Source of the DNA: a virus
Lineage: Duplodnaviria; Heunggongvirae; Uroviricota; Caudoviricetes
DNA length: 4,752 nt
Direction: 5' to 3' (one strand)
IMG/VR virus record: IMGVR_UViG_2700989165_000008
The position numbers were made by a program. How positions within the stretch are numbered: position 1 is the first letter of the stretch; each line of letters opens with the position of its first letter. Below are positions 3,001 to 4,752 of this stretch, piece by piece.

Positions 3001-4752
3001 TTCTTTATGAATGTTACCTGTTTCGCACTGATATTGTGCTGTATCGGTACATCAACAAAAGCAAAGATATTATTTTATCTAATCGCATTTTTATTTTCGA
3101 TCAGTTCAATTAAATCTTACACAAATAATGCTTCACCATTACACGATCAGGAGAAGATTGTTAAATCATACATTGATTTTTTAAAAAAAAATAATCTCCA
3201 TTATGGGTACGGCTCTTTTTGGGATTTGTCAATGACTGTAAATTGGTTATCTGGTGGGGACATACAGATAACTCCTGTTTTCTTTAATGCTGATTCGGGG
3301 AAAATTAACTTTACTGGCGTGAGACAACAGACACTGGCTTCTTGGCATAGCAAGGAGGCGTTCAATTCTGCTCCTGAGCGACAGTTTATAGCAGTTTCCA
3401 TAGCTAACGAACCTGAACGATGTAAAGAAATGACATCCTGCCTTGCAGGTATTCAAGAACAATTAGGTAAGCCTGACGAAGTTTTGAACTTTGAAGGAAG
3501 AGTAATATTAGTATTTAACAAAAAACTTAACCTATAGTAAATTGCCCCCTACCATATAAACCACACTAACGAATGAATAACCCGTCTTTTTCGACGGGTT
3601 ATATCCCTATCAGGAATAAAAATGGAGTGGTTGCCGTATACAACAAACCCTCATTTAGAGCTATATTCTAGAGTATATGAGATACTATAAAGTTGAAGGA
3701 GCTATCATTAGAAAAACCATATGCTGTTATAATTAGATGTCTCGCTTTTCATCCAATAACGAATTTTCTCTTATAGATTGCTCTCTGGTTTTTTCGGCCA
3801 CTCTGTATTTTTTATATCAACACGCATCAATAGTGCGCGATATTTTTTCCATGCCAGTAACAGTTTCGTTTCATCATCTGTTGCCATATCTAAATCAACC
3901 GCATCCTGAAGCGGCGCTATTACATTCGTTGCCTCTGCTATCAGTGCAGATTTCTTTTCATTATTTATTAAGGCTAATTGTTCTGGTGTTGGAGAAGGAC
4001 GGTCAACAATGACAGGGTGACCATTCTCACCACAGGTAATCATTTTTGTTACACTCTGCGAATTAATCAGTGTTTTCCACTCTGATTCCGAGATTTCCAC
4101 TGCATCATCAGGAATATTGGTGCCGTGAAATTCAGTCGAATAAAATCCGTTTGTCGATGCAGAATAAAAATATGACATTTCGTTAATATCCCATTGCAAT
4201 GTAATACGCATCAGCAGATGAACCATATCCTGAACCGGGCGACACTGTAATATCAAATCCAGTGTTATGGACATTTGTCGCCGATACAGTCGGCTGCCCT
4301 GACGCGCCAGTAACGTTCAATGTAACTGTGACAGCAAGGACTCTTGAGAATGTCATCGGGAACCTCATCCCGTATGTTGAAGATACATTAGGGGAGCCAT
4401 TCAACTGACCGCACTGTAAAATTAATCCAGACGGAAATTTTTGCGCAGCAGCCGTTGCGGTATTACTTGACGCGAACAGGCTCATATCAGGTATCTGATT
4501 CGCCCCTGTACCTACATTCCTTTTAGCTGCTTCTCCCAAACCAAGGTTTTCGAGAGCCGTTTTCACCGTGCCATCCGATTTGATATCGCCAAACGGATTC
4601 TTGCGGCTTAACAGCAGCGCGCGAAGTGCGGTAAGCAACTGATCGTGCCGCCCCTTCTCCAGGCTGGCACCGGATGCCTCCACCACGCTGCAAAGTGAGG
4701 TAGCCTGAGTTTAACGGACACTCCTTCCTGAAATAGAATGGCATCAGAAGGA

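Follow-up and report, generated by a model that had tools for sequence, protein, structure and literature searches.

The closest described counterpart of the site analysed here lies in the e14 element of Escherichia coli K-12, whose P-segment/pinE inversion system was reportedly described by Plasterk and van de Putte in 1985. In a complete system of the Hin/Gin/Cin/Pin type the two inverted 26-bp sites are each occupied by a Pin dimer, a Fis-bound enhancer that lies within the invertase gene at its 5' end assembles the synapse on supercoiled DNA, and both sites are cut at the central AA and rejoined after a 180-degree rotation of subunits. Wild-type Din invertases act only when the enhancer and the two sites share one supercoiled molecule. 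The gix (Mu/Gin), cix (P1/Cin) and mix (p15B/Min) sites also lie at the joint between the constant and variable parts of a fibre gene, whereas hix (Salmonella H segment/Hin) controls a promoter and not a fibre gene. Inversion of the e14 P segment at the pix repeats has been shown experimentally; it is lost when one or the other repeat is deleted, and each of PinE, PinQ and PinR can carry it out (PMC12529663; PMC4272514). The published table of Din-family sites gives pixL as TTCTCCCAAACCAAGGTTTTCGAGAG and pixR as TTCTCCCAAACCAACGTTTATGAAAA (PMC3241671 Table 3). A second group of relatives is formed by the serotype-converting myophages SfI, SfII, SfIV and SfV of Shigella flexneri, in which a fibre gene is followed by tfa, gtr, att and int. 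The SfI genome paper describes homology to e14 over SfI 1-17,234.

The DNA analysed, hereafter the window, is a stretch of 4752 bp that corresponds to the serotype-1 O-antigen modification island of S. flexneri and derives from phage SfI. The int-attP-gtrA-gtrB-gtrI-tfa-fibre order and near-identity to SfI place it among the SfI-type serotype-converting prophages. Its features, in window coordinates, are the following.

1-59: sequence matching that which adjoins another IS3-family transposase gene (L129 4661-4719); overlaps the IS600 match at 57-59
57-114: right end of IS600, matching the IS, upstream of the integrase fragment
115-473, plus strand: C-terminal fragment of the integrase (Pfam Phage_integrase)
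488-533, plus strand: attP core, equal to the SfI attP core at 21231-21276
735-1097, plus strand: gtrA (Pfam; SfI annotation)
1094-2014, plus strand: gtrB (Pfam; SfI annotation)
2017-3537, plus strand: gtrI (Pfam; SfI annotation)
3771..4178, minus strand: tail-fibre assembly (chaperone) gene tfa (Pfam Caudo_TAP, E=3.4e-27)
4183..4695, minus strand: tail-fibre gene remnant, homologue of SfI gp23 (216 aa), codons 47-216 plus stop
4183..4530, minus strand: variable C-terminal (receptor-binding) fibre part, with a Gp53-like_C domain at about 4186-4440 (PF21882, E=5.9e-14)
4531..4556: 26-bp Din-family crossover site, identical to e14 pixL and unique in the window
4531-4542: inner (variable-side) half-site, TTCTCCCAAACC
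4543-4544: core dinucleotide, AA
4545-4556: outer (constant-side) half-site, GGTTTTCGAGAG
4557..4610, minus strand: conserved box of about 54 bp, common to two otherwise unrelated fibre N-terminal families
4696..4752, plus strand: left end of IS600, TGAGGTAGCCTGAGTTTAACGGACAC... (TGAGGTAGCC...)

The 26-mer TTCTCCCAAACCAAGGTTTTCGAGAG occurs on the plus strand at 4531-4556 and nowhere else in the window. The original prediction had proposed a hix/gix-like, Din-type crossover sequence at this position; the proposal was sound, and the likeness proved closer than it had supposed, the sequence being an exact copy of pixL. The alignment to known sites that had been suggested as a check gave 26/26 matches to the published pixL and likewise to the stfP/ycfK site of e14 in E. 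coli K-12 MG1655 (NC_000913.3 1207778-1207803), against 8 mismatches to Mu gix as scanned, which has the core GA where AA is found here. As a control, the same scan recovered the Mu gix sites at the annotated boundaries of the G segment. By direct reading of the sequence the half-sites TTCTCCCAAACC and CTCTCGAAAACC agree at 9/12 positions around the AA core. The 26-mer sits inside the minus-strand ORF 4183..4686 of the tail-fibre gene, where it reads (G)CT CTC GAA AAC CTT GGT TTG GGA GAA and encodes ALENLGLGE, so that the earlier claim that it specifies LENLGLG is correct. With 26/26 identity to pixL and a position at the constant/variable junction of a fibre gene, it belongs among the Din-family crossover sites. 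That junction had also been predicted, and both homology to e14 and conservation among loci were found to drop at the site.

The fibre remnant (4183..4695) is 100% identical to SfI 17069-17581, as is the whole of window 3540-4695 to SfI 17069-18224. Identity to SfI ends at 4695 because IS600 starts at 4696; the IS there corresponds to the RefSeq 'IS3-like element IS600 family transposase' at 98.8-99.1% identity, an element that is multicopy in Shigella plasmids. Its insertion removed the 5' end and promoter side of the fibre gene, including the first 46 codons. At the other end, the match of window 1-59 to sequence elsewhere in locus L129 means that the source of the window differs from L129 just upstream. 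The tfa gene and the variable fibre part (4183..4530) together make up one cassette. Residues 19-132 of Tfa align to positions 19-131 of the Caudo_TAP profile, with the start at 4178 (MSYFYS...) in register. The start of tfa is annotated inconsistently among records, giving proteins of 135, 146, 151 or 167 aa; the longer annotated versions start at 4211, 4226 and 4274 and extend as much as 92 nt into the fibre gene, and the start at 4178 comes immediately behind the fibre stop codon. The interval separating the convergent genes gtrI and tfa holds a GC-rich hairpin followed by a T run (window 3578-3600, AACCCGTCTTTTTCGACGGGTT), probably a bidirectional terminator; in the SfV record a terminator is annotated for the tfa/downstream region corresponding to window 3722-4696. 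A tRNA scan of the window returned nothing, and its only tRNA-like stretch is the attP core.

The agreement with e14 is not confined to the site. In the e14 P segment (pinE, E. coli K-12; GenBank X01805) the identical 26 bp occupies the same fibre position in the same frame and encodes the same peptide, the polarity is the same, in that the inner half TTCTCCCAAACC lies towards the variable cassette, and stfP/ycfK upstream of the site has about 96% DNA identity to the SfI-type fibre gene. Alignment of SfI with e14 gave 96.4% identity over 1678 bp, covering baseplate genes and the fibre N-terminus and ending 9 bp past the site, whilst alignment with vB_EcoM-689R6, an e14-like phage bearing pin and mcrA, gave 97.7% identity over 3235 bp and ended 1 bp past it. 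The site lies at 17208-17233 in SfI; the SfI genome paper makes no mention of the site, of inversion or of pin, and no SfI record annotates the site. Past the site the two arrangements part: e14-type elements have a first cassette, an inverted second cassette, pixR and pin, and SfI has one cassette followed by gtrI-gtrB-gtrA-attP-int. Of the two, only e14 has an inverted partner, pixR, 1.8 kb away and adjoining pinE, together with a second cassette (tfaE, stfE'). The variable cassette of the window, by comparison, is unlike both e14 cassettes, its fibre gene is cut by IS600, and gtrI-gtrB-gtrA-attP-int is found instead, the gtr cluster (735..3537) standing where e14-type phages have the second cassette, pixR and pin. 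SfI, SfII and SfIV match window 4525-4612, including the site, at 100%, and SfV at 98.9%, and all four share the fibre-tfa-gtr-att-int order of the window; they differ in being intact, inducible phages with a full fibre of 216 aa, the window being a chromosomal remnant with its fibre cut at codon 47.

The native setting of the window was recovered by a look-up of the GtrI protein, which led to chromosomes of ~4.5 Mb matching the window at 99.96%; the identical GtrI protein is found in chromosomes in which the island adjoins proA/proB. The native order is IS600, an int fragment, att, gtrA-gtrB-gtrI, tfa, the fibre stub, IS600, an int fragment, att and proA-proB. The prophage has thus shrunk to an IS600-bounded gtr island of ~4.6 kb from which all other tail genes are gone. 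The two IS600 copies that bracket the island have the same orientation (window 57-114 and 4696-4752; L129 6899-8055 and 12744-13900), an arrangement like that of a composite transposon. The C-terminus of int, the attP core and gtrA are contiguous (window 115-1097), which is the POP' order of the free phage and not the split order of prophage ends, and a second integrase fragment with a copy of att (98.4% over 64 bp) adjoins proA (L129 14076-14972). The POP' contiguity and the second int/att copy at proA suggest the remnant of a tandem or duplicated prophage.

No partner for the site was detected. The window holds no second copy of the 26-mer at ≤3 mismatches (0/200 shuffles gave any match), no other AAACCNNGGTTT core at ≤1 mismatch, and no other 26-mer within ≤6 mismatches of nine published Din-family sites. 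A relaxed search (≤8-9 mismatches to the site; ≤6 to the nine Din sites) returned none in the window, SfI or the native 21.5 kb. The complete SfI genome of 38.4 kb contains a single site and no inverted partner, and the 21.5 kb of native chromosome one Din-type site (≤6 mismatches of nine known sites). When PinE was used as a tblastn query, no significant match was obtained in the window (best E=0.66 over 20 aa) or the complete SfI genome (best E=5.5), and there was no match in ten GtrI-anchored loci of 21.5 kb; the SfI record annotates no invertase. Homology to the e14 pin region, including its enhancer-bearing 5' part, is missing from SfI 14000-22500, and the enhancer-bearing pin 5' region from the native 21.5 kb. 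Nor does the window contain an alternative fibre C-terminus and chaperone in opposite orientation, there being one tfa and one fibre C-terminus and then gtrI. The inverted site in cis (typically 1-4 kb away), adjacent invertase with enhancer, and second cassette of a complete Din-type switch were therefore not found. Site scans and PinE tblastn thereby confirmed the earlier statement that the window has neither partner site nor invertase, and the search of the surrounding DNA for an invertase and an inverted 26-mer that had been recommended yielded neither in the SfI genome or the native 21.5 kb. A search for PinE homologues returned 3,164 clusters, a figure that carries no linkage to the S. 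flexneri chromosomes bearing the island. A defective pinF of e14-like origin was reportedly found in S. flexneri by Tominaga et al. in 1991.

How usual this state is was assessed by scanning IMG/VR for the exact 26-mer, which was found at at least 120 loci; context was judged for the 34 with ≥4.5 kb on the variable side. Among the matches listed, 25/34 loci had an inverted partner 1.5-1.9 kb away and a Pin-like invertase about 80 bp beyond it, 3/34 (one of them SfV) were gtr-linked and had neither partner nor invertase, 4/34 had no partner, invertase or gtr, and 2/34 had an invertase with the partner undetected. In the 25 complete systems among the matches listed the partner was on the variable side at 1.5-1.9 kb, and the commonest partner was the pixR sequence, seen 38 times among the at least 120 loci. 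Since 25 of the 34 have both partner and invertase, the 26-mer as a rule belongs to a working switch, and the SfI-type arrangement represents a derived minority state. The two loci with an invertase and no partner at the thresholds used (L087 and L128) have a Pin-like match at or near the expected place, full-length in L087 and short (42 aa) in L128; their partner may have diverged or been deleted. Thirteen gtr-linked orphan sites comprised five exact copies, seven with one change and one with two, a comparison of low power given so little divergence. When loci were picked by the fibre N-terminus alone, orphan and paired sites were similar, being exact or with 1-2 changes, again with little divergence. 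The lack of clear decay in the orphan sites is compatible with continued use at the DNA level, and protein constraint and recent ancestry account for it just as well.

The site also marks a sharp boundary between conserved and exchanged DNA. When 90 distinct loci were anchored at the 26-mer, their pairwise identity averaged 94-98% over 54 bp on the constant side, ~70% further upstream, and 43-57% immediately on the variable side. At the 26-mer, two unrelated N-terminal families meet 29 cassette families, and 36 pairings of the two were observed. When the two N-terminal families are compared, the 54-bp box has identities of 0.97/0.99/0.86 at codon positions 1/2/3, and the next 186 bp beyond it are at random level (0.25); this pattern points to a shared origin of the box with constraint at the protein level, and the box (window 4557-4610) could be an anchor for homologous exchange of cassettes. 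Among loci picked by the fibre N-terminus alone the outer half-site was almost invariant and the inner half followed the cassette. Two gtr-linked phage groups have constant regions 96-97% identical up to the site and differ in cassette and gtr arm.

The SfI variable cassette itself (window 3771-4530) was found in 32/5426 complete E. coli genomes. Two closely related E. coli strains, EC12 and EC15, carry it in a P2-like prophage, as part of a 1.87-kb segment whose orientation is exactly reversed from one strain to the other, with breakpoints in TTCTCCCAAACCAAGGTTTTTAAGAA and TTCTCCCAAACCAACCTTTTAGAAAA. The variable cassette of this segment (fibre C-terminus plus tfa, 97.5%) is that of the window and its sites are of the same family, but the constant N-terminus and baseplate are of P2 type, and an alternative cassette and two sites are present. 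The neighbouring recombinase gene survives as a 201-bp N-terminal pseudogene (L006 3593-3793; L007 5797-5997). Either an invertase acted in trans, the stub possibly keeping the enhancer, or the flip is older than the truncation. Among 80 e14/SfI-type loci the SfI cassette was present in seven, five of these with a detectable gtr cluster, and a partner site or invertase was found in 0/7. None of the 80 was an e14-type phage with the SfI cassette in a complete P segment, the invertible form being seen only in EC12/EC15.

We consider it highly probable that the 26-mer is a true homologue of pixL that has been orphaned and persists as a non-functional relic at a recurrent mosaic joint. pixL is where Pin-family serine invertases invert the 1.8-kb P segment of e14, swapping the C-terminal, receptor-binding part of the fibre. 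SfI-type phages carry the e14-like tail module through the site, with a gtr-attP-int arm instead of the distal half, and from the sequence comparisons we infer that this arm replaced the distal half of an ancestral invertible segment. With gtr-attP-int in place of the second cassette, pixR, enhancer and pin, the site is an orphan, presumably retained because it codes for part of the fibre and edges a conserved joint of cassette exchange. In the window IS600 has also cut the fibre gene and the prophage has been reduced to the 4.6-kb gtr island, and the site can no longer have a phage function. To judge from its sequence, the site should still be a competent target for Pin-type binding and cleavage, and the copy in the window would be unable to recombine for want of a second site and enhancer in cis. 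Because the first 46 codons and the tail genes are gone and neither SfI nor the 21.5 kb supplies a partner or invertase, host-range switching is impossible here. The original prediction had weighed a functional switch and a fossil as equally likely; the fossil is now strongly favoured and the equality falls, given a beheaded fibre, lost tail genes and the absence of partner and Pin from SfI and the native 21.5 kb.

There is a slim chance that the site is instead a latent but usable joint, at which, in intact SfI-type phages or between this remnant and another prophage in the cell, a Pin-family invertase acting in trans recombines it with a pix-type site elsewhere and so imports a cassette or inverts a chromosomal segment. 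Its identity to a proven substrate, its recurrence as a mosaic junction, the lack of visible degradation in orphan sites and the flipping of the EC12/EC15 segment despite a recombinase fragment of 201 bp all speak for such a joint. It is generally held, however, that a wild-type Din invertase needs the enhancer in cis with the two sites on supercoiled DNA, and no enhancer-bearing pin 5' region was found in SfI 14000-22500 or the native 21.5 kb. Both orientations were sought among S. flexneri-type loci, and at least five distinct loci were all collinear at the site, a weak test in that it used assemblies and not reads. Pin-family enzymes do act in trans between prophages (PMC12529663), but the mosaic joints are equally explained by ancestral segment orientations or cassettes, or by homologous recombination in the 80-bp box, and in the window the product would be a dead gene regardless. 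It is slightly less probable still that orphan pixL sites in gtr-type phages dock invertase-mediated capture of new cassettes beside a Pin-encoding prophage, or drive inversions between distant Shigella prophage remnants; were this true, the joint would give phages with no invertase of their own an active means of evolving their host range or rearranging genomes.

An active host-range switch whose partner and invertase merely lie outside the window is very improbable. The window is short and ends 196 bp past the site, and most loci with the exact 26-mer among the matches listed do have partner and invertase, but the partner would be expected 1.5-1.9 kb away on the variable side, inside the window, where tfa and gtrI are found. 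The other side is occupied by IS600 and then an integrase fragment and proA/proB, the fibre has lost its first 46 codons with no other tail genes remaining, and complete SfI, with its one site, lacks an invertase. An active switch with an outside partner is refuted as far as the window, the SfI genome and the 21.5 kb of native context are concerned. That the likeness is incidental, arising through a conserved LENLGLG fibre motif with no history of inversion, scarcely merits consideration, for although the site falls within coding sequence and conservation of the neighbouring box is concentrated at codon positions 1 and 2, the 26/26 match to pixL stands within 1.7-3.2 kb of 96-98% homology to pin-bearing e14-type elements that ends at the site, and 25/34 informative loci among the matches listed have partner and invertase. 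Chance resemblance to Din sites was ruled out by the 26/26 identity inside kilobases of homology.

The reading of the site as an orphaned pixL has little significance beyond annotation, in that the site is the published pixL sequence. The pix sequence, the inversion system and the relationship between e14 and SfI are all published and already known, and pixL is present in SfI-type phages because these carry the documented e14-like tail module. What is new is that the orphan site of the Sf phages is now exactly annotated, together with the figures on the joint. If orphan sites recombined in trans with invertase-bearing prophages they would offer a new route of host-range exchange, and nothing here indicates that they do. 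The locus provides an example of a programmed inversion switch that would have been dismantled, with one site left where gtr-att-int takes the place of the distal half, and the figures show a single 26-mer linking two unrelated fibre N-termini to about 29 receptor-binding cassettes.
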